Of a DNA stretch of 64,000 bases, positions 23,745 through 63,936 are shown in pieces (position 1 is the stretch's first letter; the number at the start of each line of letters is the position of its first letter). The notes beneath the pieces are model-generated. The model ran no database searches. It saw only the letters and a program-made list of their open reading frames with translations, and had not been told where the DNA came from. The DNA lies in assembly GCA_016794485.1 (NCBI GenBank), contig JAEUHV010000081.1:3133-67132 (forward strand). Reading direction: 5' to 3'. A program made the position numbers and the translations under genes. Source of the stretch: Planctomycetota bacterium. Its GTDB lineage: Bacteria; Planctomycetota; UBA1135; UBA2386.

Positions 23745-23763
23745 ACCGCCGAGGGGGTGCACC

Positions 23764-35712: not shown

Positions 35713-37613
35713 CGATGACCATCGATCCGAAGTGGACCACGCCGCCGCGCATCGACCGCGCCGAGGCCGATGCCTGGCGTCCACCCGAGCACCTGTCGCC
35801 AACCGAGTGGGCCGATCGGTTCCGGTTCCTCGACCCTCTGGTGAACGCGGCCGGCGGCCGCTACTCGAGCGACTTCACCCCCTACGCCCGCGAGTGGCTC
35901 GACAACGCGGCGATCGGCTGGGTGCGCCAGACCACGATCGTCGCGGGCACGCAGATCGGCAAGACCGAGACCATCAACAACGCGATCGGGTTCGCGATCG
36001 CGCAGGACCCTGGGCCGGCGATGCTGGTCGTGCCGCGCGCAGTCGACATCCAGACCACGCAGGAACGCCGCCTGGTGCCGATGATCGACGCGACGCCGGT
36101 GCTGCGCGAGCAGCGCACGGACCACGCGCACGACGAGAAGCGTCGCGAGATGCTGTTCCGGCGCAGCATCCTCTACCTGCGCAGCTCGCAATCACCGGCC
36201 GACCTGGCCAGCGTGCCGGTGCGCTACCTGTTCTGCGACGAGGTCGACAAGTATCCGGGGTGGTCAGGCCGCGAGGCCGCGCCGCTCGACCTGGCGCGCG
36301 AACGGCAGCGCACGTTCTGGAACGCCACGACCTACGTCGTGTCGACCCCCACCACCCGCGACGGCACGGTCTACCGCGAGTTCCTCGACGGCGATCGCCG
36401 GCGGTATTGGCTGCCCTGTCCATTCTGTAACTGGTGGCAGCTGCTCGAATGGAAACAGATCAGGATTCCGCCGACCGTTCGCACGGCAAAGGAGATGCGG
36501 CGCGAGCGGTCAGCCACCTATCACTGCAGCCGGTGCAACGTCGCGATCCCGGACACGGCCAAGCGAGACATGCTGCGGCGCGGGGTCTGGATTCCCGAGG
36601 GCCACACGGCCGAGGCGTGGCTCGGCGGCGAGCGCGATCGCGATCGAGCCGACCACCGGAGTTACCACATCTGGGCGGCCTACTCGCCGTGGCTGACCTG
36701 GTGGGAGATCGCGGCCAAGTTCCTGAAGGCGAAGGCCGACCCGGCGAGTTCGCTGATGAACTGGGTCAACAGCTGGCTCGCCGAGGTCTGGGAAGACAAG
36801 GTCGAGGCGCCGACCGACGACAACGTCGCGGCCGCGATCGTGCCCGGCCTGACGATGGGCGGCGGCGAGCAGGTGCCGCCCCACGTGCTGGTCGCCACCG
36901 CCGGCATCGACGTGCAGAAGGACCGCGCCTACTACGTCGTGCGCGGCTGGGGCTACGACGAGGAAAGCTGGCTGCTGGCGGCCGGCCAGGTCGCGACGCT
37001 CGAGGAGCTGGGCGACGTGCTGTTCCGCAACGTGTGGGCGAGCCGCGGCAGCGTCGGCGTGCGGTGTGCCCTGATGGACTCGCGGTATCGCCGCGACGAG
37101 GTCGTCGACCTGGCCCGCCGGTGGCCGCAGCTGCGCCTCGGCGTCGGCGTCGACCGACAAGGGCCGATCGACTTCACGACCGCGCGCCTCGAGAAGCACC
37201 CGCGCACCGGCCAGCCGTTGCCGAACTCGCTGCTGATCTGGTCGCTGAGCGTGGGCCGGTTCAAGGACTACGTCGCGCACCGGATGCGCAAGCCCGAGAC
37301 CTGGCACCTGCCTGAGGACCTGCCCGACGGCTACCGCGCGCAGGTCACGAGCGAGCACAAGATCCGGGTGCGCACCGGTGCGCGCGACGTCGAGCGATGG
37401 GTCGTCAAGCCAGGCAGCGCGGCGAACCACTACTGGGACGCCGAGGTCTACGCCGCAGCTGCGGCCAAGATGATCCGGGTCGAGCTGCTGAAACGCCGCG
37501 GCGACGAACCGCCTGGTGCTCCACCACCGCCAAGCAAGCGCCCGCGGCCGCCAGGTCCGCCGCGGCGTGATCGCGAACGCGAACCCTCGAGGTTCCCGAG
37601 GCTGTCGCGATGA
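35709..37613 (+). CDS. terminase large subunit, lambda GpA family
   Basis: 634 aa. GpA-like N-terminus (LSPTEWADRFRFL..GRYSSDFTPYAREWLD), Walker-like GTQIGKTE, and a C-terminal nuclease region. Confidence 0.9.
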   Translation: MTMTIDPKWTTPPRIDRAEADAWRPPEHLSPTEWADRFRFLDPLVNAAGGRYSSDFTPYAREWLDNAAIGWVRQTTIVAGTQIGKTETINNAIGFAIAQDPGPAMLVVPRAVDIQTTQERRLVPMIDATPVLREQRTDHAHDEKRREMLFRRSILYLRSSQSPADLASVPVRYLFCDEVDKYPGWSGREAAPLDLARERQRTFWNATTYVVSTPTTRDGTVYREFLDGDRRRYWLPCPFCNWWQLLEWKQIRIPPTVRTAKEMRRERSATYHCSRCNVAIPDTAKRDMLRRGVWIPEGHTAEAWLGGERDRDRADHRSYHIWAAYSPWLTWWEIAAKFLKAKADPASSLMNWVNSWLAEVWEDKVEAPTDDNVAAAIVPGLTMGGGEQVPPHVLVATAGIDVQKDRAYYVVRGWGYDEESWLLAAGQVATLEELGDVLFRNVWASRGSVGVRCALMDSRYRRDEVVDLARRWPQLRLGVGVDRQGPIDFTTARLEKHPRTGQPLPNSLLIWSLSVGRFKDYVAHRMRKPETWHLPEDLPDGYRAQVTSEHKIRVRTGARDVERWVVKPGSAANHYWDAEVYAAAAAKMIRVELLKRRGDEPPGAPPPPSKRPRPPGPPRRDREREPSRFPRLSR

Positions 37614-37882: not shown

Positions 37883-40800
37883 ATGGGCAACACGCACTAC
37901 TACCACATCGTGGGCGATGGGCACGTGCGCGGCACCGGTGGCGGAAACCAGCCGCAGCTGCTCGAGCCGATCGCGGGCATGACGCTGACGCTGGTCGGCG
38001 TCGCGACGCCGCCGGTGCTCAACACGATCGTGACCGGCGCGACGTCGGGCGCGCAAGCCCGCGTCACGAGCCTGCAGGATGGCGGCGGCGGCGTGTTCAT
38101 CCTGCAGCTGCTGACGCTGAACGCGCTCGCCTACACGAATGGCGAAACGGCCAACTTCGACAGCGGCGGCAGCGGTGTGATGCTCGGCATTGCGAGCATG
38201 CAGATGGCGCCCGGCCTGCTGCAGTTCGTGCCCGAGTCGAAGGACGCGATGCTGCAGACGACGTCGCCGACCGGCCTCGGCGACACCCCGTGGTGGGATC
38301 GCTGGTGCAAGACGGCGAGCGAGGTCACGGTCGCGGCAGGATGGACCGGCACGTTCACGGCAGGCCAGCGCGTCACGACCAGCGGCGGCGGTGCGTTCAC
38401 GGTGGTGCTCGTTACGGCCGGCGGCGGCGGCACGCTGTCGCTGAAGGTGGCACGCAAGACCGGCACGATCGCGGCCGCCCAGACGATCACCGGGCCCACC
38501 GGCAGCGGCACGATCAGCGTCTACCAGGGAGACCTCGCGGCGGGCAACTGGATCCAGCACAACCACATGCCGAACATCGGGGGGCTCGGCACCTACTTCG
38601 AGCGCATCCCGCACGGTTCGGGCGTCATTCGTTCCGACGGCACCGCCGACGCGACGATCGGCGTCGAGAAGTGGATCCTCGAGCAGGCGATCACGAAGCA
38701 CACCGCGTCGATCGACGCGACGGATCGCGGCGTGCGCGTGGTCCCGTTCTCGACGTTCGACGACACCCCGACGAAGGCAACGATCGGCGGGGTCGTGATC
38801 CAGACGGTCGAGTGCTCGGGCACGTTCCCCGTGACCTGGACGATCGGCGAGACCGTGACCGGCCCCGGGGGCTGGTCCGCCACCGTGCATTCGTTCAACG
38901 CGACCGCGAAGTTCCTGCACGTCGTCGAGCCGAACGGGGCGACGCTGGGTGCCGGCACGGTCACGGGCGCGACCAGCGGTGCGACCGCCACGGCGATCGC
39001 GTGCCACGGCTGGCAGAAGGGGTCGAGCTACTGGAACAACTGGAAGGCGAACAAGGACACGAGCCTGGCCGCCACCAACGGGCTGTTCTCGTCGGCGGCC
39101 GCGAAGCACGAGGGCGCGTTCCTGATGCTGTGGGAAGGCGAGCTGGGATCGCTCGGCCCGTCCGTGCTGGCGACCATACCGACGATCGAGCGCGTGGTCG
39201 AGGAGTGGCTGCGGTTCCTCGCGGACTTCCGCACCGAGCTGGGCAACTCGACGATGCCCATCACGCTGTTCTACGGCGACGTGCGGCAGCACGGCAGCGA
39301 TCTGCCTGGCGGTGCCTACCTGCTGCGTAGCTGGCTGCTGAGTGTGTCGGTGAAGGCGACGAAGGTCACGCTGACCACGGCCGACGGGCTCGAGGGCCAA
39401 AAGCTCGGCGGCCTGCCGAACCCGACCTCGTTCCTCTACTGGCGCCCGCTCGACTATGTCGAGATCGGTCGCCGTGCCTGGCGGTCGCTCGAGTTCGCGA
39501 TGAGCGAACCGGCCAGCGGCAACTTCGAACCGCTGCCCCTGATCTTGCTCGCCGGTCAATCGCACGCCGTCGGCAACGTGCCGTTCGCCTTCGCGTCGAT
39601 GGACAACGACCCGGACCTCTACAGTTCGGTGTCGTTCCCGGGCGTGTCGACGATCGATCCGAAAGTCTGGATGTGGCACGCAAGTGCGCACGTCTGGCAG
39701 AACTACGACGCGGGCCTCAACGGGAACACGTTCTTCGCACCATTCGCCGGCCTGTTCGGCAGCGAGTGCAGCCTGCTGCTGCGGCAGAAGTATCGGTTCG
39801 GCCTCGACGGCGCGCCCGGCGAGGTCGGGATGATCAAGCTGGCGGTCGGCGGCAGCAGCGTGTCGTCGACCAGCGTGGGCGCGCCGGCGTGCTGGGACCC
39901 GAACGGCAGCGCCCGGTCGACCACGACGGCCAGCATGACCGTGACCGCGCAGGCCGCGTCGCTGCCGGCGGTGCCTGCGCGCGGCCGATTCACCGCGACG
40001 GCCGGCACGTTCTCGTCCTACCAGAACCTCGCGGCCGTGACCGTCACCGGCAGCGCTGCCGGCCAGCTCGGCGCCGGCGGCAACAACACGGCGCCCGACA
40101 CGATCGCGAACGTGCACGCGGTCGCGCCAGACGGGACGTGGGTCGAGCTGATCGGCCCGTTCGTCAACGAGGGCCCGCGGTCCTTCACCCTCACGCTGGG
40201 CCCGATCCCGCTGGTCGATCGAGTCGAGGCCGAGATCCGGCTGGCCCTCGAGAAGTGCGTGACGCAGCTGCGCCGCATCCCGAAGCCGGTGCTCAAGGTC
40301 TGGTGGCAGGCCGAAGGCGACCTGCTGAACATCGCACCCTACAAGGAAGCGCTGCTGCGCACGCTGCGGTGGCTGGAGGACATCTTCGGCCAGCGGCACA
40401 AGGGAGAGACGCCGGTCGCCACGGTCATCATGGAGCTGACCGGCCGCACGCCGTGGCAGGTGTCGGACACGGCGATCGCGCAGCTGCAGCAGATCCAGGC
40501 CGAGGTCGCGGCCGAGCTGGGCAACGCGGTCGTGGTGTCGACCAGCTCGCTGCCGCAGGAATCAGCCGGGATCTTCCCGCGCACTACGCGGCAACACAAC
40601 GGGATCCACCACACGCCGCGTGGCTACATCCAGGCCGGCTATCTCGCCGACGCTGGTGCGAACGGCCTGATCGGGATCCCGGACTACCCAGCCACGAGCC
40701 CCCTCGCCGGCGTCGACCAATTTGTCGACGGTGCCGCAGATGCCGGCGGGGGTTCCACTGACAGCGGCACCGACGCAACGACCGACGCGACCGACGCGCC

Positions 40801-41050
40801 GGCAACGACCGACGAGGCCGAGACGCCAACGGCCGCGGTCGACGGCATGACCGGGCAGAGCGCGACCACGATCATGCAGCAGATCGAGGAAGCGCTGTCC
40901 GCCGGCGGCATCGACATCGCTGGCTACACGATCAACGGACGCACGGTGCAGAACCGCAGCCTGTCCGAGCTGATCGAGCTGCATCGCTACGTGACCGCGC
41001 AACAGCAGCGCGACCGAGGCATCCGCCGCACCCGCGTTCGCTTCACCTGA
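37883..41050 (+). CDS. large virion-module protein: beta-rich repeats, SASA/SGNH-type carbohydrate O-acetylesterase-like domain(s), C-terminal gpW-like head-tail joining domain
   Basis: SASA-like blocks in order: LILLAGQSHAVGN, MIKLAVGGSSV, VWWQAEGDLLN, NGIHHTPRGYIQAGYLADA. An upstream degenerate copy is present (AFLMLWEGELG ...). An acidic Thr/Asp linker follows. The last 67 aa are gpW-like, and the ORF occupies the W slot between TerL and portal. Confidence 0.6.
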   Translation: MGNTHYYHIVGDGHVRGTGGGNQPQLLEPIAGMTLTLVGVATPPVLNTIVTGATSGAQARVTSLQDGGGGVFILQLLTLNALAYTNGETANFDSGGSGVMLGIASMQMAPGLLQFVPESKDAMLQTTSPTGLGDTPWWDRWCKTASEVTVAAGWTGTFTAGQRVTTSGGGAFTVVLVTAGGGGTLSLKVARKTGTIAAAQTITGPTGSGTISVYQGDLAAGNWIQHNHMPNIGGLGTYFERIPHGSGVIRSDGTADATIGVEKWILEQAITKHTASIDATDRGVRVVPFSTFDDTPTKATIGGVVIQTVECSGTFPVTWTIGETVTGPGGWSATVHSFNATAKFLHVVEPNGATLGAGTVTGATSGATATAIACHGWQKGSSYWNNWKANKDTSLAATNGLFSSAAAKHEGAFLMLWEGELGSLGPSVLATIPTIERVVEEWLRFLADFRTELGNSTMPITLFYGDVRQHGSDLPGGAYLLRSWLLSVSVKATKVTLTTADGLEGQKLGGLPNPTSFLYWRPLDYVEIGRRAWRSLEFAMSEPASGNFEPLPLILLAGQSHAVGNVPFAFASMDNDPDLYSSVSFPGVSTIDPKVWMWHASAHVWQNYDAGLNGNTFFAPFAGLFGSECSLLLRQKYRFGLDGAPGEVGMIKLAVGGSSVSSTSVGAPACWDPNGSARSTTTASMTVTAQAASLPAVPARGRFTATAGTFSSYQNLAAVTVTGSAAGQLGAGGNNTAPDTIANVHAVAPDGTWVELIGPFVNEGPRSFTLTLGPIPLVDRVEAEIRLALEKCVTQLRRIPKPVLKVWWQAEGDLLNIAPYKEALLRTLRWLEDIFGQRHKGETPVATVIMELTGRTPWQVSDTAIAQLQQIQAEVAAELGNAVVVSTSSLPQESAGIFPRTTRQHNGIHHTPRGYIQAGYLADAGANGLIGIPDYPATSPLAGVDQFVDGAADAGGGSTDSGTDATTDATDAPATTDEAETPTAAVDGMTGQSATTIMQQIEEALSAGGIDIAGYTINGRTVQNRSLSELIELHRYVTAQQQRDRGIRRTRVRFT
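40847..41050 (+). CDS. possible nested gpW-like head-tail joining protein (in-frame internal start)
   Basis: In-frame ATG 40847 gives a 67-aa product, MTGQSATTIMQQIEEALSAGGIDIAGYTINGRTVQNRSLSELIELHRYVTAQQQRDRGIRRTRVRFT. Lambda gpW is 68 aa with a similar pattern, DGRRVEF..SVSDLKKYIAELE..RRRG. Confidence 0.4.
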   Translation: MTGQSATTIMQQIEEALSAGGIDIAGYTINGRTVQNRSLSELIELHRYVTAQQQRDRGIRRTRVRFT

Positions 41051-42723
41051 TGAGCACCATTCCGCACAACCGGGCGCCGCTGGTGCGCATCCTCGACGCG
41101 AACGGTCGCCCGTTCCCGAGCACGCGCGCGTTGTCGTCCCGATCGGGCAACGGCTTCGCCGGCGCGAAGTCGCGATCGGTCGCGCTTCGCCACGACGCGG
41201 CCCGCATGGATCGGGTGCGGACGCGCGCGCGCAGCGGATCGGCCGACGGCGACCTGGCGCCGGACCTGCAGGTGCTGCGCGAGAAGTCGCGCGCCCTGGT
41301 TCGCGACGACGCGCACGGCGCGGCCGCCGTGCGAGTGCTGGTCGAGAACGTGGTCGGCGACGGCATCCGGCCGCAGGCCGCGGTGCACCCTGAGAACACC
41401 GGCCTGACGCAGAAGCAATGCGACGAGTGGAACCGTGCCGCCGAGCGGATCTGGTGCGAGTGGGCCGCCGCGCACGCCGACGCGAACGACATCGGTTCGT
41501 TCGACGACCTGACGCGCCAGGTCTACCGTTCACGCGTCGTCGACGGCGAGGCCCTCGTGCACCGCATCGAGGTCGACGGCGACGACCGCCGGCTGCGCAC
41601 GGCCTGGGAGATGATCGACGTCGACCGCCTGCAGGACCCCACCAGGCTGCAGGCGCTGGCGGTTCGGATGGGCGTCGAGATCGGCACGCGCGGCCAGCCG
41701 GTGGCCTACTGGATCACGCCCCACCACCCGGACGACCTGCGGTTCCTCAACGGCCAGATCGTCGGGGCGAACTGGCCCGAGCGCATCGAGCGCGTGCGGC
41801 TCGGAATCTGGAACGTGCTGCACGTGTTCCGCCGCGATCGCGCGGGGCAAAGCCGCGGCCTGCCCGCGCTGACCGCCGCGATGCCGCTGTTCGAGCACCT
41901 GCACCACTACCTCGACAGCGAGATCATCGCGGCGCGTGCGAACAGCAACGTCGCGATGTTCGTGCGCCGGCCGATCGACGATCGCGATCCGGACCTCGCG
42001 CCGGTCGACGACATCGGTCCGAACGGCGACGGCGAGATCGTCTACCACGAGACCCTCGAGCCGGGCACCATCGAGTATCTGAACGAGGGCGAGGAGATCC
42101 AGCCGTTCACGCCGAACCGGCCGGGCTCGACGTTCGACCCGTTCGTGACCCGCATCCTGCGCGCGATCTGCGCCGCGATGGGGCTGCCTTACGAGCTGGT
42201 CGTGAAGGACTTCGGCCAGATGACCTACAGCAGCTCGCGCGCCGTGCTGCTCGAGGCCCGCCGCGGGTTCACCAGCGAGCAGAACTCGCTGATCGGCAGC
42301 TGGCTGCAGCCAGCGTGGGAAACCGTCATGCGCGAGGCGATCGTGCGCGGGCTGCTGCCAGTCTATCCCGCGATGGTGCAGAACCTGCGCGCGTTCCTGG
42401 CCGCGCGGTGGATCCGCCCCGCCTGGGGCTGGGTCGATCCGGTGAAGGAGATCGAGTCGGCACGGCTCGCGGTCGAGGCCAACCTGTCGACGCCGGACAT
42501 CGAAGCCTCGCGCGCCGGCCTCGACGCGACCGACATCCTCGAGCAACGCGCCCGCTTCTACGTGCGCGCCCGCGAGATCGAAGCCCGCAACGGGCTCGAG
42601 CCAGGAACCCTCACGCGCGAGCGCTCCGAGCGCATCGAGGCCGTGCAACCCAAGGCCGGCAAGGGTGAGGAACAGAAGCCACCCGCCGGCAAGAAGACGG
42701 ACGACGAGGACGACGACCAATGA
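41050..42723 (+). CDS. portal protein, lambda gpB family
   Basis: 557 aa directly after the W-like region. Lambda-family portal pattern and an acidic C-terminal tail. Confidence 0.85.
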   Translation: MSTIPHNRAPLVRILDANGRPFPSTRALSSRSGNGFAGAKSRSVALRHDAARMDRVRTRARSGSADGDLAPDLQVLREKSRALVRDDAHGAAAVRVLVENVVGDGIRPQAAVHPENTGLTQKQCDEWNRAAERIWCEWAAAHADANDIGSFDDLTRQVYRSRVVDGEALVHRIEVDGDDRRLRTAWEMIDVDRLQDPTRLQALAVRMGVEIGTRGQPVAYWITPHHPDDLRFLNGQIVGANWPERIERVRLGIWNVLHVFRRDRAGQSRGLPALTAAMPLFEHLHHYLDSEIIAARANSNVAMFVRRPIDDRDPDLAPVDDIGPNGDGEIVYHETLEPGTIEYLNEGEEIQPFTPNRPGSTFDPFVTRILRAICAAMGLPYELVVKDFGQMTYSSSRAVLLEARRGFTSEQNSLIGSWLQPAWETVMREAIVRGLLPVYPAMVQNLRAFLAARWIRPAWGWVDPVKEIESARLAVEANLSTPDIEASRAGLDATDILEQRARFYVRAREIEARNGLEPGTLTRERSERIEAVQPKAGKGEEQKPPAGKKTDDEDDDQ

Positions 42724-44780
42724 CGACGACGAAGAAGGTCCCGCTGGAAGCCTGCACGTTCCTCCTGACCGAGGCCGGCCAGGATGCCGAGGTCCTGCTG
42801 GCGGCCGCCACCGCCGAGAGCGGCGGCGAGTCGCGGTTCGAGATCGCGGCCCTGTCGGGCAAGGTGATCGAGAACCACTGGTGGTGGGGCAACCTGGCCA
42901 TCGAGCTGTCGGGCATCAAGGGCAAGGGCAAGGTGCCGGTGCTGGTCGACCACAACGTCGGCCTGCGGATCGGCGTGTCGGACGACCGCGAGATCGACGC
43001 GAAGCGCGGCCTGGTCATGCGCGGCAAGTTCCTGAAGTCGAGCCCGCTCGCGGCCCAGGTGCGCGACGAATCGAAGGACGGGTTCCCCTGGGAGGCCTCG
43101 GTGCGCGTCGTGCCGCTGAAGGTCGAACAGATCCCGGAGGGCGTCGAGGCCGAGGTCAACGGGCAGAAGGTCCGGGGGCCGGGGCACATCTTCCGTCGGT
43201 CGCAGCTGCGGGAAGTCTCCTTCACCGCACTGGGTGCCGACCACAACACTTCCGCCGCGGCGCTGTCGGAGGCGTCGCCCGAACTCGCGGTGGAGTTCTC
43301 CACACTGGCGACGAACGAGGACACGATGACGAAGAAGATCGAAGGGGCACAGGTGCCGGAGCCGCAGGCGCCGAACGAAGTGCAGTTGGCCGAGCAGCAC
43401 AAGCAGGCCGGCATCAAGGCCGAGCGCGACCGCGTGGCCGCGATCCGGTCCGCCGGCACGCCCGAGCAGGCCGCGCTGGTCGACGAGCTGATCGTCGGGG
43501 GTGCCGAAATCTCGGCGGCCCAGGCGCGCTTGTCGGAAGACCTCCGGACGCGGTTCCGCGTCATGATGAACCAGTTCGCGAACCGCGAGGGCTCGCTGAG
43601 CGGCGGCAACCGCGGCGAGCAGGTCGACACCAAGCTGGCGCAGATCAACGCGCTCGAGGAAGGCCGCGACAAGTGGGCCGCGCAGTGGGACCACGATGCG
43701 AGCCTGCGCGCGCAGTTCCTGCGCAAGGACGACTTCCTGGCGTTGCGCGACGTCGAGCTGGCGGGCTGGAACCCCTCGCGGATCCGCCGGCGCGACGACA
43801 AGGGCCAGCCGTTGGCCGTGCGTCCGTGGGACGAGGTCGCGCTGGCCGCGTCGTCGCCCTCGAGCCCGGTCACGATCGCGGGAGTGCGCGCCGGCTACGC
43901 CGCCTCGCTGCAGGCCATGCTGGGCCTGTCGTGGGCGCGCCAGATCGCCAGCGCGTTCCCGACCAGCTCGCCGTCCGAGACCTACCCGTGGCTGCGCGCA
44001 GTGCCGAACCCGCGGAAGTGGGAAGGCGAACGGACCACGCAGGAGCTGCGGTCGGACGTCGTGACGATCGTCAACGACGACTACGAGAACTCGATCGAGT
44101 TCAAGGTGCCGGACCTGCGACGCGACAAGACGGGCCAGATCATGGCCCGGGCTGCCGACCTCGCGACCCGCGTCGCGTTTTTCCCCGAGCACCTGATCAC
44201 CGCGCTGCTGACCGCGAATGGCAACGCCTACGACAACGTCGCGTTCTTCGCGACGACGCACGCCGTCGGTTCGAGCGGCACGATCAACAACAACATCCTG
44301 GCCGCCGACGGCCTGGCTGGCGGCACGGCGCCGTCGACCGCCCAGATGAGCACCAACCTGCTGCTGATCCTGGGCAAGATGCTGGCGTTCCTCGACGACC
44401 AGGCGCAGCCGGTCAACGAGGCCGCTCGCCAGCTGATGGTCATGGTGCCGGCGAACCTCTACGGCGCGACGGTTGCGGCGATCAACGCGATGTTCACCAG
44501 CGCGTCGGCGACGAACCCGCTCGGCGAGCTGGCTCGCTACGGCTTCTCGTTCACGCCGGTGCTGAACGCGCGCCTGACCACGCAGAACCAGTTCTACGTG
44601 TTCCGCGCCGACGCGGGCATCCGGTCCCTGCTGCTGCAGGAGGAAGGCGTCAACCCGGTCGAGCTGGGCCCGGACAGCGAGCACGCGAAGAAGACGAACC
44701 GCGTGCTGTTCGGCCACGGCTGGGCCGGCGGCGTCGGCTACGGCCGGTTCGAGATGGCGATCCGGGGCACGACCTCGTGA
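42720..44780 (+). CDS. prohead protease (HK97/S78-like) - scaffold-like linker - Mu gpT-like major capsid protein, single ORF
   Basis: N-terminus VPVLVDHNVGLRIG..GLVMRGKF..EASVRV..EVSFTALGADHNT (S78 pattern). Middle coiled coil (AERDRVAAIRSAG..). C-terminal ~330 aa is gpT-like (WEGERTTQELRSDVVTIVNDDYENSIEFKVPDLRRDKTG...). Confidence 0.75.
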   Translation: MTTTKKVPLEACTFLLTEAGQDAEVLLAAATAESGGESRFEIAALSGKVIENHWWWGNLAIELSGIKGKGKVPVLVDHNVGLRIGVSDDREIDAKRGLVMRGKFLKSSPLAAQVRDESKDGFPWEASVRVVPLKVEQIPEGVEAEVNGQKVRGPGHIFRRSQLREVSFTALGADHNTSAAALSEASPELAVEFSTLATNEDTMTKKIEGAQVPEPQAPNEVQLAEQHKQAGIKAERDRVAAIRSAGTPEQAALVDELIVGGAEISAAQARLSEDLRTRFRVMMNQFANREGSLSGGNRGEQVDTKLAQINALEEGRDKWAAQWDHDASLRAQFLRKDDFLALRDVELAGWNPSRIRRRDDKGQPLAVRPWDEVALAASSPSSPVTIAGVRAGYAASLQAMLGLSWARQIASAFPTSSPSETYPWLRAVPNPRKWEGERTTQELRSDVVTIVNDDYENSIEFKVPDLRRDKTGQIMARAADLATRVAFFPEHLITALLTANGNAYDNVAFFATTHAVGSSGTINNNILAADGLAGGTAPSTAQMSTNLLLILGKMLAFLDDQAQPVNEAARQLMVMVPANLYGATVAAINAMFTSASATNPLGELARYGFSFTPVLNARLTTQNQFYVFRADAGIRSLLLQEEGVNPVELGPDSEHAKKTNRVLFGHGWAGGVGYGRFEMAIRGTTS

Positions 44781-49770: not shown

Positions 49771-51738
49771 GTGGCAACCAGTGAGAAGCGCACGCTCGAG
49801 ATCCGGGCCAAGCTCGTCGACCTGCTGACCGGGCCGCTGGGCGGCATGGACGGCGCGCTCGCGAAGTGGGTCAAGCGCGCCTACGGCTGGTTCCGCAACG
49901 TCGCGGGCGTCGTGCTGAACGTCAAGACGGCGGTGGCCGGGCTCGCCGCCTCGATCCTGTCGCTGTCGACGATCAAGGGGTTCGGCGAGCAGGCCGACGC
50001 GCTGTCGAAGCTGTCTACCGCGACCGGCGACACGATCGCGAACCTGTCGGAGGTCCAGGCCGCGTTCGACCTGGCGGGCGTGAAGGCCTCGGAGTTCGCG
50101 GACCTGACGAAGGCCCTGCTGGGCCAGGCGCGCAAGGCGCAGACCGACTCGACCGACAAGCTCGAGCAGTCCTTCGCCGCGTTGGGCATCACACTGAAGG
50201 ACCTGCAGAGCCTGGGCCCGACGCAGCTGTTCGAGAAGATGGCGGCGGGCCTCGAGAAGTTCGGGACCGAGCAAGAGAAGGCCGTCGCGCTCGGCAAGGT
50301 GCTGCCGAAGCAATTCCTCGAGCTGCTGCCGATCCTCGGTGGCGGGCTCGCGAACTTCCAGGCCGCAATCCTCGAGGCCCGTAAGGCCGGCGCGACGGTC
50401 ACCGAGCAGCAGGCGAAGGTCAGCGAACGCCTGAATGACTCGCTGTCGAAGGTCGGCATCGCGATCGGCGGGGTGTCGCGTGCCCTGATCGAGGAGTTCG
50501 GGCCGGACGCGATTGCGCTGTTCGAGCGGCTCGCCCGGTCGATCACCGAGAACCGGCAGGGCATCGTCGACGTCGCCGCGGCGATCGGCAGCGGCATGGT
50601 GGCCGCGGTCAACCTGGCGATCGAGGCCGTGATCGGGCTCGTGGGTGCGATCGAGAGCATTCCGGGCGTCAACCTGCTCGACACGGCCGAACTCGACGAG
50701 CAGATCCGCAAGCTCGACGAGTCGCGCGTCGCGGTGCGCAAGCGCATCGTGCGCGAGGGCGGGACCAACCGAAGCCCCGAACACCTGGCGGCGGTAAAGG
50801 AGATCCAGGACGAGATCAACCGCCTGACCGAGATCCGCAACCGCGGGCTCGCCGGCCAGCTGCGCGACTTCAAGGTGACCCTGTCGCAGGAGCTGCAGGC
50901 CGCCGCTGATTCGGTTCGCTCGGCGAGCAACGGCAGCGGCTACGGAACCGGGCGCGTCATCGAAGGCGGCCCCGCCACGGTGCTGCAGCCACCGAAGGGC
51001 AAGGCGATCGACGAGAGCGACGCTGCCGCGGTCGACGACTACCTCGCAGCGTGGGGCAAGATCGCGGACAAGTCGAAGGACCTGGCCGACAACGTCGACA
51101 AGGTGAAGCCCAAGCTCGCGTTCGAGGGCGGCTTCTTCGACGGGTTCAACGACGGCGCGAAGGACGCGATCGAGAGCCTGACCAGCTTCCAGCAGCTCGG
51201 CCGCGATGCTTCGAACGTGCTGGCCAGCGGCCTCGACGGCGTCGCGGGTGCGATCGTCGAAACGTCGATGGCCGTCGACGGCAGCTCGCAAGCGTGGAAG
51301 CGGCTGGGCCTGTCGGTGGTCGCCGAGCTGGGGCGCATCATCACGAAGCTGCTGATCGTGAAGGCCTTGCAGGCCGCCCTGGGCTACTCCGGTTCGGTCG
51401 CGCTCGAGGACGGCGGCGTCGTCGAAGGCAACATGGGCAAGCCGGTGCAGTCCCGTGCGTTCGCGCGCGGCGGCGTCACCAGCGGGCCCACGCTCGCGCT
51501 GTTCGGCGAAGGCCGCAACCGCGAGGCGTTCGTCCCCTTGCCTGACAACCGGTCGATCCCGGTCACGCTGAACGGCGCCGGCGGCGGCACGAACTTCTCG
51601 TTCACGATCAACGCGGTCGACGGCCGCGACGTGCAGCGCATGCTGCTCGAGCAGCGCGAGACGATCATGGCCGTGTTCGCGCACGACCTGAAGCACAAGA
51701 CCGAGGTGCGCCAGATGGTGCACAAGGCGGCCAGGTGA
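49771..51738 (+). CDS. tape measure protein
   Basis: GTG start. 655-aa helical Ala/Leu-rich protein with hydrophobic segments, in the position after G/GT. Confidence 0.85.
   Translation: MATSEKRTLEIRAKLVDLLTGPLGGMDGALAKWVKRAYGWFRNVAGVVLNVKTAVAGLAASILSLSTIKGFGEQADALSKLSTATGDTIANLSEVQAAFDLAGVKASEFADLTKALLGQARKAQTDSTDKLEQSFAALGITLKDLQSLGPTQLFEKMAAGLEKFGTEQEKAVALGKVLPKQFLELLPILGGGLANFQAAILEARKAGATVTEQQAKVSERLNDSLSKVGIAIGGVSRALIEEFGPDAIALFERLARSITENRQGIVDVAAAIGSGMVAAVNLAIEAVIGLVGAIESIPGVNLLDTAELDEQIRKLDESRVAVRKRIVREGGTNRSPEHLAAVKEIQDEINRLTEIRNRGLAGQLRDFKVTLSQELQAAADSVRSASNGSGYGTGRVIEGGPATVLQPPKGKAIDESDAAAVDDYLAAWGKIADKSKDLADNVDKVKPKLAFEGGFFDGFNDGAKDAIESLTSFQQLGRDASNVLASGLDGVAGAIVETSMAVDGSSQAWKRLGLSVVAELGRIITKLLIVKALQAALGYSGSVALEDGGVVEGNMGKPVQSRAFARGGVTSGPTLALFGEGRNREAFVPLPDNRSIPVTLNGAGGGTNFSFTINAVDGRDVQRMLLEQRETIMAVFAHDLKHKTEVRQMVHKAAR
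51598..51693 (+). repeat. direct repeat copy A (3' end of tape measure gene)
   Basis: 51598-51659 is identical (62/62) to 62515-62576. Similarity with a few mismatches continues to 51693 / 62610. Confidence 0.95.
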
Positions 51739-54195: not shown

Positions 54196-54578
54196 TCACG
54201 CTCGAGCAGATCCTGCGCACGCGATACGCGATCGACGGCGACGAGGTCGGCGTCGCGCTGTCGTGCCTCGGCGCCGTGCGCGCGGTCGCGCGCCTGCGAG
54301 GCCTGCCGCCGCCCGACGGGTGGCTGTCCATTCGCGCGGCGTGGGAACGCGGCGAGGTCGAGACGGCCAGCGGGTTCCCGGCCGGCTGGGTGCGTCAGCC
54401 GGCCGGCGCGCAGCTGCTCGACGGCGACGTGCTGGTCTTCCAGCGAGCCGGCCGCCAGGGGTGCGGCATCGTGCACGAGGGCTGGGTCGTCACTGCCGAC
54501 ACGGCGCCAGGCGTCTACCGGTTGCCGCTGTCGCGCTGGTCGATCGCGCCTGCCGAGGTGTGGAGGTTCGTCGCATGA
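54192..54578 (+). CDS. gpK-like tail protein (NlpC/P60-related)
   Basis: ATG 54192 in the frame of track ORF 53637..54578. Pattern GDVLVFQRAGRQGCGIVHEGWVVT resembles the NlpC/P60-like region of gpK or GTA g14. Assigned by position. Confidence 0.5.
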   Translation: MITLEQILRTRYAIDGDEVGVALSCLGAVRAVARLRGLPPPDGWLSIRAAWERGEVETASGFPAGWVRQPAGAQLLDGDVLVFQRAGRQGCGIVHEGWVVTADTAPGVYRLPLSRWSIAPAEVWRFVA

Positions 54579-57500
54579 TCCGCGTGCTCGTGCGTCAGGG
54601 CGTGCTGGGCCAGCAGGTCGATGCGTTCGACGTGCCGGCCGCGGCGTGCACCAGCGCCAGGTCGTTGCTGCAGCAGTTCGCGTCCTTGCTGCCGCGCAGT
54701 GTGCCGATCACGGTCGCGGTGAACGGCGCACGGTTGCGCGACGAGCAGCTCGACGACCCGATCCCGGACGGCCAGCAGGTCGTGCTGCTGCCGACCACGG
54801 GCGACGTCGTGACCATCATCGTGACGGTGCTGATCCAGGTCGCGGTCGCGGCCGCGGTCAACTACGTCGCGCAGCAGCTGGCGCCCCGCCCGAAGCCCCA
54901 GGGCGTCGCGCAGGAACGCGGCGACGAGAGCAGCTCGACCTACGCCTGGGACGGCCTGACCACGAACTACGGGCCCGGCCTGCCGATCCCGTGGGTGTAT
55001 GGCCGGCACGCTGTCGGCGGCCAGGTGATCTGGTCGGACGTGATCGCGTCGCGCGCCAACGGTGCAGCCGCGCTCGACGATCGCCTGCGCATGGTCCTGT
55101 CGCTGTGCGATGGGCCCATCTACCGGTTCGGCGACATCCTGGCCGGGAGCATCGACGGCCTCGGCGGCCTGGTCGGCCAGCCAGCTGGGCCCGCGATCCC
55201 GTCCGACCTGCGGATCAACGACACCCTGATCCCGCCCGCCGACCCGAACCCAGGTGTGCGGGTTTGGCTTCGGCCAGGCACGAAGGACCAGCCGCCGTTG
55301 CCCGCGCCGTTCACCGGCGTGGCCACGACCGAGACCCTCAACGTTCCCCTGACGGGCGTCATCGGCCTGGCCTACGTGCACACGATCGCGGACGCATCGG
55401 ACCTCGCGATGATCCGGGCGGTCGTCGCGTTTCCGAGCGGCCTCTACGCCGTGGGCCCCAACGGCCAGCCGGTCGCACACAGCGCGACGTTCACGGTCGG
55501 CTGGCGCCTGCCTGGTCAGACCGGGCCCGGCACGTCGCTGCCGACGAACGTCCCGAACGCGGGCGCGGGCGGGCCGTTCCTCGGCTACCACGCGGTCACG
55601 TGGTCGGCGGACGCGAGCGCGAACACGCCGGGCGGCATCACCAATTTCCCGACCGGCCTGTCGGGCCCGATCGAGCTGCTGTTCTTCTTCTCGTCTGTCT
55701 CGGGCACGTCGATCGTGAACGCGGCCGTGCTGCGCGAGCTGACCACGGTCAAGTCGCACACGCTGCGCTACCCTGGCGAGGTCCTGCTGGCGATCGAAGT
55801 CGCTGCCGGATCGCGCTTCAGCGGCGGCCGGCCGCAGGTCTACCACCGGATCGACGGCGCGCTGGTGCGCGTGTGGGATGCGACGAACGGGTGGTCGCCG
55901 CGGTGCTGGGAAGTGCCGGCCGCGCCGCACAACTTCAACACGCACCCGCCTGGGCGGAACCCCGCCTGGTGTCTGCTGGACTTCCTGCTGAACCGCTGGG
56001 GGCTCGGGCGCTACCTAACCGAGGACAAGATCGACCTGCCGGCGTTCCGGCGCTGGGCGGCGTTCTGCGACTCGGACCCGAACCCGGGCGACCCGTGGGG
56101 CGAGCCGTCGCATTGCGTCGACGTCGTCGGCGACCAGCCGCGCACGGCGTGGGAGTGGGTGCTGCTGTTCTGCTCGACCGGTCGCGCCACGCCGGTGATG
56201 CGGAACGGCAAGATCAGCGTGGTCTACCAATACCGCGACGCGCACGGCGACGCCGGCATCACGGTGCCGGCGAAGGAATCGCTGCAGCTGCTGACCAGCG
56301 GCAACTGCGAGGCCCTCGAGGCACGCCTGGTGCCGAAGCGCTCGCGCGCCACCATCCTCGAGTTCCAGTTCCTGAACGAGGAGACGGGTTACGCGCAGGA
56401 CGTCTACCCGGTCGAAGACGACGAGAGCACGTTCAACGACCCGACCGCGCTGCGCCGCGAGCAGACGCGCGTCGAGACGATCCAGGCGTTCGGCGTCACG
56501 CGCGAGTCGCAGCTGTTCCGCGAGGGCCGCTGGCGCCACCGCATCGCGCGCCTGGTCGACTGGGAGATCACGGGCCGCACCGGACCGTGGGCCCTCGCGG
56601 CCGAGGTCGGCGACCTGGTCGACGTCGAGCACGAGCTGCTGCGCCCGTTCGCGACCGACGTGCCGCTGACCCAGCAGGTGACCACCGGCGGCACCGCCAC
56701 GACCACGATCGAGGTCGACCACCACCTGACCGGCAGCGGCCTGCAGTTCGTCGGCCGCGGGACGGACGGCAAGCCGAAGCGTTCGAACATCACGAGCTAC
56801 GTCAACGCGCTCGTCGGCGGCAAGAAGCGCTCGACCCTGACGCTGGCCACGGCCGTGACCGTCGCGACCGGCGCGACGTGCGTCGTGGGCAAGATCGACA
56901 AGCTGACCGAGACCTACGAGCTGGTGTCGATCACGCAGGGCAAAGACCTGGTGCGCGAGTTCCGCGCGATCCAGTGGACCCCGACGGCCTACGACCCGAT
57001 CACGCGCGACGAGTTCCAGGGCATCCTCGAGCCAGGCGACATCGCGGAAGGCACCGGCGAAGACCTGCTCGACAACGGTGGATCCGACACGCTGCCGCCC
57101 GAGGTCTACGGCATCCGGGTGTCGGCGCAGGTCGACGGCTCGCACCTGGTCACGTGGGCGCGCCCGGCCAGCAAGGCCGGCACGTGGGCTCGCGTCTACG
57201 TGCGGCCGGCAGACCTGGTCGGTGCGTGGGTCCTGGTCGCGGGCACCGAGCTGTCCGAAGTCGCGGTGCGCGGGCTCGCGGTCGGGACCAGCTACGTCGT
57301 GTCGGTCGCGCTCGAGAACCGCGGCGGCGACCCGGTGCCGCCTGACCTGGGCGACCAGATCACCGTGCTGCCCGAGGAGTTCCCGCCGTTCGCCCCGCCC
57401 GCGGTGACGAACGCGCGCGCGGTGCTGCTCGGCGACGGCGTGCAGCTCGAGTGGAACCAGATCGAGCAGCGAGACCTGGACACGTTCGAGGTTCGGTGCG

Positions 57501-58234
57501 GCAGCAACTGGCCGGCGGCCGCCGTGCTGGTGCGCGAGAAGGCCCCTCGCGTGGTGCTGGCCGACCCGCCGGCCGGGCCCGTGTTCCTGATCGCGGCGCG
57601 ATCGCGGTCGGGCCTGTATGGCGGAATCGCGCAGGTCACGAACCCGAACTGGACGCCGCGCAACACGGTGTCGGTGCTCGACGAGAACGACCTGGCGCCG
57701 TCGCCGGCCGGCTCGCACAGCGGCACCGCGTGGAACAGCACGGCCGGCGTGATCGAGCTGGCGGCCGGTCAGCTGACCGGCACCTACGAAGGCCTCGCGC
57801 AGGACATCGGCTACCAGGCGCCGTTCTTCTGGCAGGTGCGCGTCGATCGCGAGGAGTTCGAGGACCTGACCGTCGCCGACCTGGCGTTCGCGTGCGGGTC
57901 CGGCGAAGGACGGTGGCGCCGCACGACCGGCCGGCCCGCCAGCGCGGCCGCGCCTGGGCTCGGCTGGCACATGCGGTGCCAGGACCTGACGGGCACCCTG
58001 GTCGTCGATCTGCCGCGGGACCTTCTGGCGCGCGGCTTCCGTGGCGTGACGGGCACGCACACGCGCGTGCTGGTCGAGTCGCGCTTCTACGTCAGCGGCG
58101 TCTGGACGGCCTACGCGGCCCACGTCGACCGCGTCGTGGTCGCGAGCCGCATGCAGGTCCGCCTGACGCTCGGCCGCCGATCCCTGACCTACCGCGCGCG
58201 CGTGCCCATGTTGACCTACCGCGCGTTCCTCTGA
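54575..58234 (+). CDS. tail tip / host-specificity protein: gpI-like N-terminus fused to gpJ-like body
   Basis: ATG 54575 in track ORF 54263..58234. The N-terminal ~110 aa is ubiquitin-like plus a hydrophobic stretch (VVTIIVTVLIQVAVAAAVNYV), as in gpI. gpJ-like sequence follows (YAWDGLTTNYGPGLPIPWVYGRHAVGG...). Confidence 0.8.
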   Translation: MIRVLVRQGVLGQQVDAFDVPAAACTSARSLLQQFASLLPRSVPITVAVNGARLRDEQLDDPIPDGQQVVLLPTTGDVVTIIVTVLIQVAVAAAVNYVAQQLAPRPKPQGVAQERGDESSSTYAWDGLTTNYGPGLPIPWVYGRHAVGGQVIWSDVIASRANGAAALDDRLRMVLSLCDGPIYRFGDILAGSIDGLGGLVGQPAGPAIPSDLRINDTLIPPADPNPGVRVWLRPGTKDQPPLPAPFTGVATTETLNVPLTGVIGLAYVHTIADASDLAMIRAVVAFPSGLYAVGPNGQPVAHSATFTVGWRLPGQTGPGTSLPTNVPNAGAGGPFLGYHAVTWSADASANTPGGITNFPTGLSGPIELLFFFSSVSGTSIVNAAVLRELTTVKSHTLRYPGEVLLAIEVAAGSRFSGGRPQVYHRIDGALVRVWDATNGWSPRCWEVPAAPHNFNTHPPGRNPAWCLLDFLLNRWGLGRYLTEDKIDLPAFRRWAAFCDSDPNPGDPWGEPSHCVDVVGDQPRTAWEWVLLFCSTGRATPVMRNGKISVVYQYRDAHGDAGITVPAKESLQLLTSGNCEALEARLVPKRSRATILEFQFLNEETGYAQDVYPVEDDESTFNDPTALRREQTRVETIQAFGVTRESQLFREGRWRHRIARLVDWEITGRTGPWALAAEVGDLVDVEHELLRPFATDVPLTQQVTTGGTATTTIEVDHHLTGSGLQFVGRGTDGKPKRSNITSYVNALVGGKKRSTLTLATAVTVATGATCVVGKIDKLTETYELVSITQGKDLVREFRAIQWTPTAYDPITRDEFQGILEPGDIAEGTGEDLLDNGGSDTLPPEVYGIRVSAQVDGSHLVTWARPASKAGTWARVYVRPADLVGAWVLVAGTELSEVAVRGLAVGTSYVVSVALENRGGDPVPPDLGDQITVLPEEFPPFAPPAVTNARAVLLGDGVQLEWNQIEQRDLDTFEVRCGSNWPAAAVLVREKAPRVVLADPPAGPVFLIAARSRSGLYGGIAQVTNPNWTPRNTVSVLDENDLAPSPAGSHSGTAWNSTAGVIELAAGQLTGTYEGLAQDIGYQAPFFWQVRVDREEFEDLTVADLAFACGSGEGRWRRTTGRPASAAAPGLGWHMRCQDLTGTLVVDLPRDLLARGFRGVTGTHTRVLVESRFYVSGVWTAYAAHVDRVVVASRMQVRLTLGRRSLTYRARVPMLTYRAFL

Positions 58235-62320: not shown

Positions 62321-62649
62321 AACCGAAGGCCCACATCGTGGCGCACGACGGGCGCGGCCCGCGGCCGTTCGGCTTCGAGTGCCTGCACTGCGGATCGGTG
62401 CATGCTCTGCAGGTGCCCATCAGTCTGGCGATGTGGGGCGAGGCGGCGAAGGCCTTCCACGTCCTGCACCGGGACTGCAAGGAACGCCGCGCCGGGGCCC
62501 GCCGGCAGGCGGACTCGTTCACGATCAACGCGGTCGACGGCCGCGACGTGCAGCGCATGCTGCTCGAGCAGCGCGAAACGACCAGGGCCGTGTTCGCGCA
62601 CGGGCAGAAGCTGCGGCGCCAGGACTTGAGGAAGGGAGACGAGGGCTAG
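62317..62649 (+). CDS. small Cys/His protein whose C-terminus duplicates the tape measure C-terminus
   Basis: ATG 62317 (ATGA overlap). N-terminus CLHCG...HRDC. C-terminus SFTINAVDGRDVQRMLLEQRETTRAVFAH matches tape measure residues SFTINAVDGRDVQRMLLEQRETIMAVFAH. Confidence 0.5.
   Translation: MKPKAHIVAHDGRGPRPFGFECLHCGSVHALQVPISLAMWGEAAKAFHVLHRDCKERRAGARRQADSFTINAVDGRDVQRMLLEQRETTRAVFAHGQKLRRQDLRKGDEG
62515..62610 (+). repeat. direct repeat copy B
   Basis: Matches 51598-51693 at an offset of 10,917 bp: 62 identical nt, then scattered mismatches. Confidence 0.95.
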
Positions 62650-63755
62650 CCGTGATCCGCCGCCGCCTGACCACCCTCGACGTAGCGAAGCCGACCCGAG
62701 GCCGCGTGCAGGTCCGCCGCGACCAGGTGGACGTAGCGCTGGGTGGTGGCGTAGCTGCTGTGGCGCAGCATCGCCTGCACGGTGCCGGCCGGCACGCCGG
62801 CCCGGATCAGGTTCGTGGCCAGGCTGTGGCGCAAGGCGTGCGGGTGGAATCGGCGATCGCCGAAGCGCTTCGCCCAGCGGCGGAACACGCGATCGATCGC
62901 CTGCACGCGCCGCTTCTCGGACTCGCCGGCGACGATGAAGCCGCCGCGCGCGCGCTCGACCAGGCGCTGCGCGACGGCCAGGATCGGCGCGGTGATCGGC
63001 GCGGGCACGTCGTCCGTCTTGCCGCGCACCAGAAACACGCTGCGGCCCAGGTCGAAGTCGGCCGCGTGCAGCCGCGCCAGCTCGGCCCGGCGCAGGCCGG
63101 AGTAGGCCAGGAAGATGACCAGGTCGAAGTCGTCGGGCGCGACCGTGCGCAGGTGCTCGAGGCGCGCGGCCAGCTCGGCCTCGCCGAGCACGTCGGGCGA
63201 GGCCTGGCGTGGTTCGGGCCAGCTGGCGAGCGGCACCGGATTCTCGCCGCGGAACCACTGCCGCTGCGGCATCGAGCACCAGCGCACCAGGCGGTTGAGC
63301 CAGCGGCGGTAGTGCTGGATCGTGCGCGCCGCGAAGCCGCCGCGCTGCGCGAGAGCGACGAGCTGCTGCAGCACGCCGGGCGTCAGGCGAGCCAGCGGCA
63401 GGTCGCCGTCGATGATCCGGAACACGGCCTTCGCCTGGGCCTTGTAGAACTGGACCGTGCCGTCGCGCCGCAGGCCGACCAGCTCGCAATGCATCGCCTC
63501 GGCGGCCTCGCGCAGCGTCTTCGTCACGAACGGCGTCGCGGCGTCGCCGGCGCGCAGCTCGATCGCGTCGCGGTGCGCGGCCAGCGGCTCGTCGCGCCAG
63601 GGGCCGTAGCAACGGCGCCGGCCGATCATGGCCCAGGCGCGGTAGGCGGTGACGCGCCGCTGGTCGGTCGGCAGCTCGCGATCGCGGGGATCGTGCCGCA
63701 CCTGCACGAACGGAGGAAGACGCCTGCCGCGTCCCGTGCCGCGTCTGTTCGCCAT
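62646..63755 (-). CDS. int: tyrosine integrase
   Basis: ATG 63755 (MANRRGTGRGRRLPPF...). Catalytic contexts ..RRAELARL.., HALRHSLAT, LRHSSYATTQRYVH. Adjacent to the tRNA. Confidence 0.9.
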   Translation of the reverse strand: MANRRGTGRGRRLPPFVQVRHDPRDRELPTDQRRVTAYRAWAMIGRRRCYGPWRDEPLAAHRDAIELRAGDAATPFVTKTLREAAEAMHCELVGLRRDGTVQFYKAQAKAVFRIIDGDLPLARLTPGVLQQLVALAQRGGFAARTIQHYRRWLNRLVRWCSMPQRQWFRGENPVPLASWPEPRQASPDVLGEAELAARLEHLRTVAPDDFDLVIFLAYSGLRRAELARLHAADFDLGRSVFLVRGKTDDVPAPITAPILAVAQRLVERARGGFIVAGESEKRRVQAIDRVFRRWAKRFGDRRFHPHALRHSLATNLIRAGVPAGTVQAMLRHSSYATTQRYVHLVAADLHAASGRLRYVEGGQAAADHG

Positions 63756-63772
63756 GTTTCGCACCCTACCAT

Positions 63773-63798
63773 GTGGCCGAACTTGTGGCCACGTGGGC
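63773..63798 (+). repeat. putative integrase arm-type sites (right arm)
   Basis: GTGGCC (63773), GTGGCC (63785), GTGGGC (63793). Same orientation as the left-arm copies. Confidence 0.4.
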
Positions 63799-63806
63799 AA
63801 CAACTG

Positions 63807-63836
63807 TTGACACCATGCACGACGTAACCCTAGGCT
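63807..63836 (+). promoter_or_regulatory. putative phage-borne promoter for the reconstituted tRNA-Leu
   Basis: TTGACA (63807-63812), 18 nt, TAGGCT (63831-63836). The tRNA 5' end is at 63850. Confidence 0.35.
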
Positions 63837-63849
63837 GCACCAAGCCCTC

Positions 63850-63936
63850 GCCGGAGTGGCGGAATCGGCAGACGCACAGGTTTCAAAAACCTGCGCCCTC
63901 ACGGGCGTGCGGGTTCAAGTCCCGCCTCCGGCACCA
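63850..63936 (+). tRNA. tRNA-Leu (anticodon CAA), class II with long variable arm, CCA encoded
   Basis: Manual fold. Acceptor GCCGGAG/CTCCGGC. D arm GTGGCGGAATCGGCAGACGC. Anticodon stem CAGGT/ACCTG with loop TTCAAAA. Variable arm CGCCCTCACGGGCGTG. T arm GCGGG-TTCAAGT-CCCGC. Discriminator A plus CCA. Confidence 0.9.

Follow-up and report, generated by a model that had tools for sequence, protein, structure and literature searches.

A lambda-like prophage on the 5' side of a planctomycetal tRNA-Leu(CAA) gene, with evidence for integration of reversed polarity at the anticodon loop

The window analysed here, a stretch of planctomycetal DNA of 64,000 nucleotides (64 kb), contains a single tRNA gene called by ARAGORN, a tRNA-Leu(CAA) of 87 nt with encoded CCA on the + strand at 63850-63936. 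Its first 39 nt (63850-63888) comprise the 5' strand of the acceptor stem, the D arm, the 5' strand of the anticodon stem and the whole 7-nt anticodon loop, and they recur exactly at 23534-23572, giving a start-to-start spacing of 40,316 nt. The identity of this left copy to the tRNA starts precisely at tRNA +1. Both the intact tRNA at the integrase end and the repetition of its first 39 nt had been described in the initial annotation and were reproduced here; an exact repeat of 39 nt within 64 kb cannot be of chance origin. The same annotation stated that the left copy lacks everything past the anticodon loop. It does lack the variable arm, the T arm and the 3' acceptor strand, and ARAGORN called no tRNA at 23534-23580, but a degenerate 3' strand of the anticodon stem persists: past the loop the left copy reads CCCTGTGC and the tRNA reads ACCTGCGC, an imperfect match that brings the total to 47 nt with 2 mismatches. 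The features of the locus are as follows.

22540-23103, + strand: Nfu/NifU-like gene (Pfam Nfu_N and NifU)
23114-23470, + strand: 118-aa ORF, located directly upstream of tRNA-Leu(CAA) in relatives
23488-23516, + strand: promoter-like signal native to the host tRNA (TTGCCT-17-TACGCT), located 17 nt ahead of the left copy and aligning with L007 and L009
23534-23580, + strand: attL core, with tRNA nt 1-39 exact and then a phage-derived, imperfect 3' anticodon-stem strand
23566-23572, + strand: anticodon loop TTCAAAA at attL, the putative overlap region
23573-63849: prophage body, ~40.3 kb (Pfam and PHROGs)
23726-23732 and 23738-23744, + strand: two TGTGGCC direct repeats, P' arm (read from the sequence)
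25253-26836: ParB (Pfam/PHROGs)
30287-31639: ParB-methyltransferase (Pfam/PHROGs)
35709-37613: gpA-type large terminase (Pfam/PHROGs)
41050-42723: portal (Pfam/PHROGs)
42720-44780: protease-capsid fusion (Pfam/PHROGs)
49771-51738: tape measure (Pfam/PHROGs)
54263-58234: tail protein (Pfam/PHROGs)
62646-63755, - strand: tyrosine integrase, 369 aa (PF00589, E=3.5e-24; phrog_1, E=2.5e-40)
63772-63778 and 63784-63790, + strand: two TGTGGCC direct repeats, P arm, between the integrase start and the phage promoter-like signal (read from the sequence)
63807-63836, + strand: promoter-like signal of the phage (TTGACA-18-TAGGCT), with 13 nt between it and tRNA +1
63850-63936, + strand: reconstituted tRNA-Leu(CAA) at attR, with nt 1-39 the repeated core and nt 40-87 host-derived
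63882-63888, + strand: anticodon loop at attR, the putative crossover site

Between the two copies lies a lambda-like prophage of ~40.3 kb, whose genes, called on the basis of GC3 and annotated with Pfam and PHROGs, are mostly on the + strand, and whose size fits that of related viral contigs (38.9-45.7 kb). The integrase is divergent from the tRNA, its start codon lying 94 nt from tRNA +1. With a PF00589 score of 85.9 bits (cut-off 27.1) it belongs to the tyrosine recombinase/phage integrase family, and the segments GLRRAE, HPHALRHS, LRHSSY and RYVHLVA, invariant in a three-way integrase alignment, contain the catalytic R, H-x-x-R, H/W and Y (putative roles, assigned by eye). With regard to an N-terminal arm-binding domain of the lambda type, Pfam gave no match for residues 1-130 and a sub-threshold SAM-like match for residues 136-203. 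A tblastn search of the integrase against 50,697 phage records found no match above 30% identity, so that no characterised phage supplies a reference attP. Look-ups of the exact Nfu and integrase proteins yielded short Logan contigs of SRR10555717 and nothing else, and did not extend the right flank.

Some features of the prophage interior are recorded here in their own right. A 1055-aa ORF with a strong coding signal (37883-41050, + strand, GC3 0.92) lies between the large terminase gene, which is followed by a small 72-aa ORF, and the portal gene; at E<=0.001 neither Pfam nor PHROGs gave a match for it, and its size and position are unusual for a lambda-like head module. An isolated direct repeat of 98 nt, 94% identical, has one copy in the 3' end of the tape-measure gene (51597-51694) and the other just past the integrase stop (62514-62611), within a ~1.3-kb stretch without a convincing gene call; it may be a relic of illegitimate recombination. 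Finally, the motif GCGC(C/A)AGGCGCAAGGCGGTG(C/T)(C/A)(T/C)C(G/T)TGA occurs at three gene junctions of the left arm (24600-24648, 25223-25271 and 27345-27393), where it is probably a shared signal of ribosome binding and stop/start overlap, or else a small repeated gene end.

The genes to the left of 23534 are housekeeping genes, encoding an M32 carboxypeptidase, the Nfu protein and the 118-aa ORF. To obtain empty sites, GTDB species representatives were scanned with the 3' 49 nt of the tRNA, which yielded ten Planctomycetota/Phycisphaerales MAG loci; nine of the ten carry an 87-nt tRNA identical to that of the window. At seven of these nine, the Planctomycetota MAG loci L007-L013, Nfu, the 118-aa ORF and an intact tRNA-Leu(CAA) adjoin one another and share a strand, the tRNA following 60-90 nt past the 118-aa ORF, and no integrase was found in the loci examined. 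In the closest relative, L007, whose flank genes are 83-86% identical to those of the window at the amino-acid level, the sequence upstream of the tRNA (cttgcct...tacgct...cccccattcc) aligns with 23480-23533 and not with 63756-63849. The upstream sequence of L009 likewise aligns with the left flank and not with the integrase side, so the left flank is the native upstream context of the tRNA. The comparison with unoccupied sites that had been proposed for this locus thus agrees with the original reading that the prophage lies upstream of the tRNA gene, and among these relatives we found no empty site in which the integrase side is contiguous with the chromosome. The right flank amounts to 64 nt in the window and does not align convincingly with relatives; the right boundary of the prophage therefore rests on the tRNA 3' half being missing from every attP described below. 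At two further loci, L005 and L006, the tRNA-Leu(CAA) is inverted relative to Nfu and the 118-aa ORF, with its 3' end facing the 3' end of the ORF, which suggests local inversion at an integration hotspot.

The phage form of the site was recovered from related viruses. Six further phage lineages carry tRNA nt 1-39/47 only and no full tRNA (eight when the window's phage and one inverted arrangement are counted). The exact 39-mer is present in two IMG/VR contigs, L003 and L004, neither of which has a tRNA that we could find. L003 aligns collinearly with the window, its integrase with 62705-63645 (73% nucleotide identity), its core with the core and its ParB with 25260-26184 (68%), so that the sequences forming the right and left ends of the prophage are joined there across the core; the att site is interior to this 38.9-kb contig. 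Searches by integrase alignment and for integrase homologues added L015 (with L018 and L041-43), L031, L032/L033 and L045/L046, while a metagenome scan returned duplicates and distant integrases only. The integrases of L015, L031, L032 and L045 are 65-75% identical to that of the window; in all four, tRNA nt 1-44 or 1-47 are located ~90 nt upstream of the divergent integrase, the far side of the fragment consists of phage genes (ParB in L031 and L032), and no tRNA was called. In the attP contigs the 5' tRNA fragment is placed between the divergent integrase and ParB or other phage genes, and in every attP, as in the prophage (94 nt), the core is outside and upstream of an intact integrase gene.

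A four-way alignment places the sites in register. Upstream, attL follows attB and attR follows attP; downstream of the loop, attL follows attP and attR follows attB. The question raised by the initial annotation, namely which half of the tRNA the phage carries, is answered by the independent phage contigs L003, L004, L015, L031, L032 and L045, whose attP contains the 5' part only. These data bear directly on two other readings of the locus. The left copy at 23534 could be what remains of an earlier or a different element, or of a tRNA in decay, the true prophage ends being elsewhere; tRNA fragments from past integrations are common, and 3'-half relics of this same tRNA occur in related MAGs (L014). 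We consider this very improbable, since the DNA to the right of 23572 and to the left of 63850 is contiguous across the same core in independent phage contigs, the sequence upstream of the left copy is conserved native tRNA context, and the 40.3-kb spacing equals the size of related phage contigs. Classical integration on the 3' side, in which the element would extend to the right of the tRNA beyond the window and the integrase side would be chromosomal, is the usual arrangement for tRNA-targeting integrases. Here its probability is close to nil: the repeated part is the 5' half, the phage structural genes and the integrase are left of the tRNA, the Nfu flank runs straight into the tRNA at empty sites, and the tRNA 3' half is missing from every attP.

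A formal alternative is that the reads came from free phage together with an empty attB instead of an integrated prophage. The integrated state depends on the assembly of a MAG across a repeat of 39-47 nt, and a Logan contig (k=31) from the same sample breaks off precisely at 63888. Such a mixture would leave the content of attP unchanged.

The end point of the shared sequence suggests where recombination takes place. The cores of the 5' type end at tRNA nt 39, 44 or 47. Three loci contain only nt 33-87 of the same tRNA-Leu(CAA), as listed here.

L014, 1529-1583 (reverse-complemented orientation): nt 33-87 fragment
L034, 5896-5950: nt 33-87 fragment
L035, 5283-5337: nt 33-87 fragment

This fragment has repeats of the ATCTGGGGT type, unlike TGTGGCC, on either side, and in L035 it adjoins a different integrase of 416 aa; it is a classical element of 3' polarity, which approaches the same anticodon loop from the opposite side. 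What the two polarities share is this loop, nt 33-39. Its stem flanks it as an inverted repeat, and the phages keep (A/C)CCTG opposite CAGGT. Since the loop is common to cores of the 5' and 3' types, the crossover probably falls within the 7-nt loop TTCAAAA, in agreement with the published anticodon-loop sublocation, in which the identity block is, as here, bounded at the loop with symmetry of the flanking stem. The retained 3' stem strand, which is dispensable at attR, would fit the role of a second core-type half-site.

L034 and L035 also encode an integrase 72% identical to that of the window, 2.3 kb upstream of the 3' tRNA half and beside a HEPN_AbiU2 gene; no 5'-half site of its own was found for it. 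A switch of polarity within the integrase clade was considered for these two loci and rejected: the 3' fragment has different arm repeats (ATCTGGGGT) and adjoins the different, 416-aa integrase, and it therefore belongs to another, classical element.

Direct repeats of TGTGGCC flank the core on both sides. Pairs at positions equivalent to those of the window are present in both arms of L003 and L015 and in the P arm of L031, L032 and L045, while the P arm of L004 has the second repeat alone intact. In the window the P-arm pair ends 16 nt upstream of the -35 hexamer described below. Judged from sequence and position, the repeats are candidate arm-type integrase binding sites, and their presence on both sides of the core is the organization of a lambda-type attP, with the sites putative.

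Integration upstream of a tRNA gene raises the question of its transcription. The integrase is divergent and only 94 nt (63756-63849) precede +1, so transcription of the tRNA must begin in phage DNA, as the initial annotation had proposed; this geometry is joined by a conserved promoter-like motif that resembles the native ones. Upstream of the tRNA in nine relatives we found TTG(A/C)NN-17/18-TA(C/G)GCT (one TAACGT) at 10-17 nt from +1. In the window a spacer of 18 nt lies between the hexamers TTGACA (63807-63812) and TAGGCT (63831-63836). Of the six attP loci compared, five have TAGGCT or, in L045, TAGGAT 11-13 nt ahead of the 5' half, preceded at 16-18 nt by a -35-like hexamer. The modules (hexamer, spacer, hexamer, distance to the 5' half) are the following.

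Window phage: TTGACA-18-TAGGCT-13
L031 and L032: TTGCAA-17-TAGGCT-11
L015: TTGACC-16-TAGGCT-11
L004: GTGCAA-17-TAGGCT-11
L045: TTGCAC-17-TAGGAT-11

Neither TAGGCT nor a -35 pair was recognisable in the attP of L003. On both strands of the window, TTGNNN-N16-18-TASGCT matches at 23488 and 63807 only, each time directly before a copy of the 5' half, against an expected 0.23 matches (mean of first-order Markov simulations); the motif was partly defined from these two sites, and the count is thus supportive but not independent. The signal at 63807-63836 had been called a good sigma-70-like promoter. Its hexamers and 18-nt spacer are where they had been placed and are conserved in phages, but a generic sigma-70 scan with the E. 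coli consensus, which may not be that of the host, called no promoter there, TAGGCT matching TATAAT at only three of six positions. The same scan with the E. coli consensus also left the native promoter at the left copy uncalled and, because generic scans were silent at both copies, the clade-specific motif comparison was used instead. The phage motif mimics the native tRNA promoters in these alignments, and its presumed promoter activity is well motivated.

The tRNA might nevertheless be served in some other way, by a start further upstream or overlapping the integrase promoter, or it might be poorly expressed, with another tRNA-Leu gene or wobble decoding making up for it. The silence of the E. 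coli-type scan at 63807-63836 and the L003 attP without the motif both speak for such a reading. We nonetheless think it unlikely: the integrase, which is the closest gene upstream, has the opposite orientation, with no + strand gene for ~2.7 kb upstream in the GC3-based calls; the hexamers, their spacing and their distance to +1 are conserved across phages whose surrounding intergenic DNA has diverged; and the motif copies native tRNA promoters.

We consider it highly probable that a temperate lambda-like phage has integrated with reversed polarity into the anticodon loop of the host tRNA-Leu(CAA), the rebuilt gene being a phage/host chimera. In the mechanism that we propose, the tyrosine integrase would recombine attP with attB at the anticodon loop of the host gene. 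The attP would carry, in place of the tRNA 3' part, nt 1-39 and the degenerate 3' anticodon-stem strand, preceded by a host-tRNA-like promoter element and flanked on both sides by TGTGGCC arm-type sites. One product, attL, would consist of the host promoter, the 5' half and phage DNA, and would be a dead tRNA stub; the other, attR, would run from the integrase through the P arm, the phage promoter and the 5' half into the host 3' half, and would be a sequence-perfect tRNA. Transcription of the chimeric tRNA would then start within the phage DNA, 94 nt long, that separates the integrase from +1.

At the other end, the host promoter-like signal at 23488 is now directed into the prophage, and would be predicted to read through into its left arm. 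A terminator scan past attL found no T-tract terminator, so the host tRNA promoter may read through into the ORF at 23725-24633 and ParB. The phage DNA past attL (23573-23720) contains several GC-rich palindromes, such as CGCCGACCGGTCGGCG near 23690-23710.

The tRNA segment carried by the phages is itself conserved. Conservation of nucleotides 1-27 amounts to 93-100% among phages with integrases of 43-75% identity and with diverged intergenic DNA nearby. Recombination is expected to need the loop and its flanking stem only. From its +1-precise identity and the conserved nt 1-27, the phage copy looks to be under selection for tRNA function. In L015 and L045 the first pair of the D stem shows a compensatory change (G10-C26 to A10-T26), a double substitution that points to probable selection for a foldable tRNA 5' half matching some host variant. 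A broader proposal, which we put forward as speculation with a small chance of being correct, is that promoter and 5' half form a host-derived cassette that defines the clade, with a reciprocal swap of promoters by which the phage would control a single-copy tRNA (Leu(CAA) here; Sec and Ser in other members) and, when integrated, capture the host promoter for its left-arm genes (ORF 23725-24633, ParB onward).

Nearly all tRNA-targeting integrases leave the promoter and the 5' half of their target gene untouched, and both island-finding logic and textbook models assume this. Integration on the 5' side is rare but already documented. Sites made of the 5' half have been described as typical of archaeal pTN3-like integrases only and as seldom met in bacteria (PMC8371274). 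In pTN3 (Cossu et al. 2017, PMC5495485) attP and attB share 41 bp of the 5' half of a tRNA-Leu, the minimal segment being nt 2-44, and the rebuilt tRNA-Leu is separated from its original promoter (PMC5495485). The window's phage shares with pTN3 the use of the tRNA-Leu 5' half by attP and attB, the rebuilding of a full tRNA, the loss of the original promoter and expression predicted from element DNA. In the pTN3-like (SSV-type) integrases of Thermococcales, however, attP is inside the integrase ORF, so that integration splits the gene, and the integrase promoter is said to drive expression of the tRNA. An attP inside the integrase ORF was found neither in the window prophage nor in any attP; unlike archaeal pTN3, the window's phage has an intergenic attP, an intact and divergent integrase, lambda-style arm repeats and what appears to be a dedicated tRNA-like promoter element.

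The locus also resembles the anticodon-loop class of sublocation (Williams 2002, as summarised in PMC8371274, preprint 10.1101/2020.11.02.365908), which that summary describes as an identity block from the loop to the tRNA's 3' end, with the native promoter kept. The probable crossover in the loop, the stem as flanking inverted repeat, the integrase beside attP and the perfect rebuilding of the tRNA are common to both. In contrast to the standard class as summarised there, the block in the window reaches from the loop back to the 5' end, and the gene has its promoter replaced. None of the attP loci carries the 3' portion of the tRNA: every attP has nt 1-39/47 only, and the native promoter is left behind at attL.

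Bacterial elements on the 5' side are on record as well. Among 88 tRNA-linked phage-related sequences of Sinorhizobium meliloti, nine (~10%) are reported, in the passages on these elements, to be at the tRNA 5' side (PMC11476347), and passages of a preprint (10.1101/2020.11.02.365908) place Klebsiella clade I.d integrases and the arg2A-VII islands upstream of arg2. Those passages report the D loop, as opposed to the anticodon loop, as the sublocation of some Klebsiella integrases that fall outside group I.a (leu5A-IX, arg2A-VII; 10.1101/2020.11.02.365908). As far as these passages describe them, the elements resemble the window's prophage in being bacterial, upstream of a tRNA gene and in a minority configuration (PMC11476347; 10.1101/2020.11.02.365908), and those of S. 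meliloti also in a repeat that matches the tRNA gene's 5' end and in preserved tRNA integrity, according to the corresponding passages (PMC11476347). They differ in belonging to other phyla, and the passages on them describe no conserved element-borne promoter. The filters of Islander permit 5' fragments upstream of the tRNA gene (PMC4383910). We regard the window as a bacterial, lambda-type version of this configuration.

A different departure from the 3'-half rule is the tRNA-dependent lysogeny of actinobacteriophages (Guerrero-Bustamante & Hatfull 2024, PMC10865867), in which the core measures only ~10 bp, integration destroys the host tRNA, and the loss is complemented by an entire phage tRNA gene located elsewhere in the genome. 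There too the tRNA supply of the lysogen depends on phage DNA (PMC10865867). In the window, unlike in those lysogens, the host tRNA is rebuilt at attR, with all 87 nt identical to those of nine related MAGs, and the prophage encodes no other tRNA; no other tRNA was found in the window or the attP loci.

The present locus provides a clearly documented bacterial case of mirror-image tRNA integration, in which attB, attP, attL and attR were each recovered, and indicates that integration can approach an anticodon loop from both of its sides. It further provides a phage that carries a copy of a host-like tRNA promoter, whose activity is presumed from resemblance. Callers of prophage and island boundaries should accordingly search for 5' fragments upstream of tRNA genes.

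The arrangement extends to more distant integrases. L036 (integrase 50% identical) has a complete tRNA-Ser(UGA) at 2364-2451, behind TGTGGCC repeats and 50 nt upstream of the divergent integrase; this tRNA is between two integrases (2501-3709 and 1194-2219), of which the one on the 3' side is unrelated (29% identity) and in the classical position. No att site was found adjoining the integrase in L034, L035 or L040. In L037 and L038 (integrases 44% identical) the promoter-like signals TTGACC-17-TAGCGT and TTGACG-17-TAGAGT precede a 5' tRNA-like fragment, GGGAGTGCAT(A/C)AGAGCTGGTGTTCT(T/G)CCTGGTCTTCAAA, ~100-140 nt upstream of the integrase start at 2501 (- strand), with arm repeats GTAGCC/GTAGCAC. 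The fragment resembles the 5' half of tRNA-Sec(UCA), to which the Rfam model RF01852 gives a weak match (23 bits, E=1.3). L039 (integrase 41% identical) has a promoter-like motif and the Leu 5' half in inverted arrangement, with the integrase on the other arm. As far as these sequences indicate, the arrangement recurs across a clade of Planctomycetota phage integrases, at least at tRNA-Leu(CAA), probably at tRNA-Ser(UGA) and possibly at tRNA-Sec, and the clade is a source of integrases and att sites for a phylum in which genetic tools are scarce.
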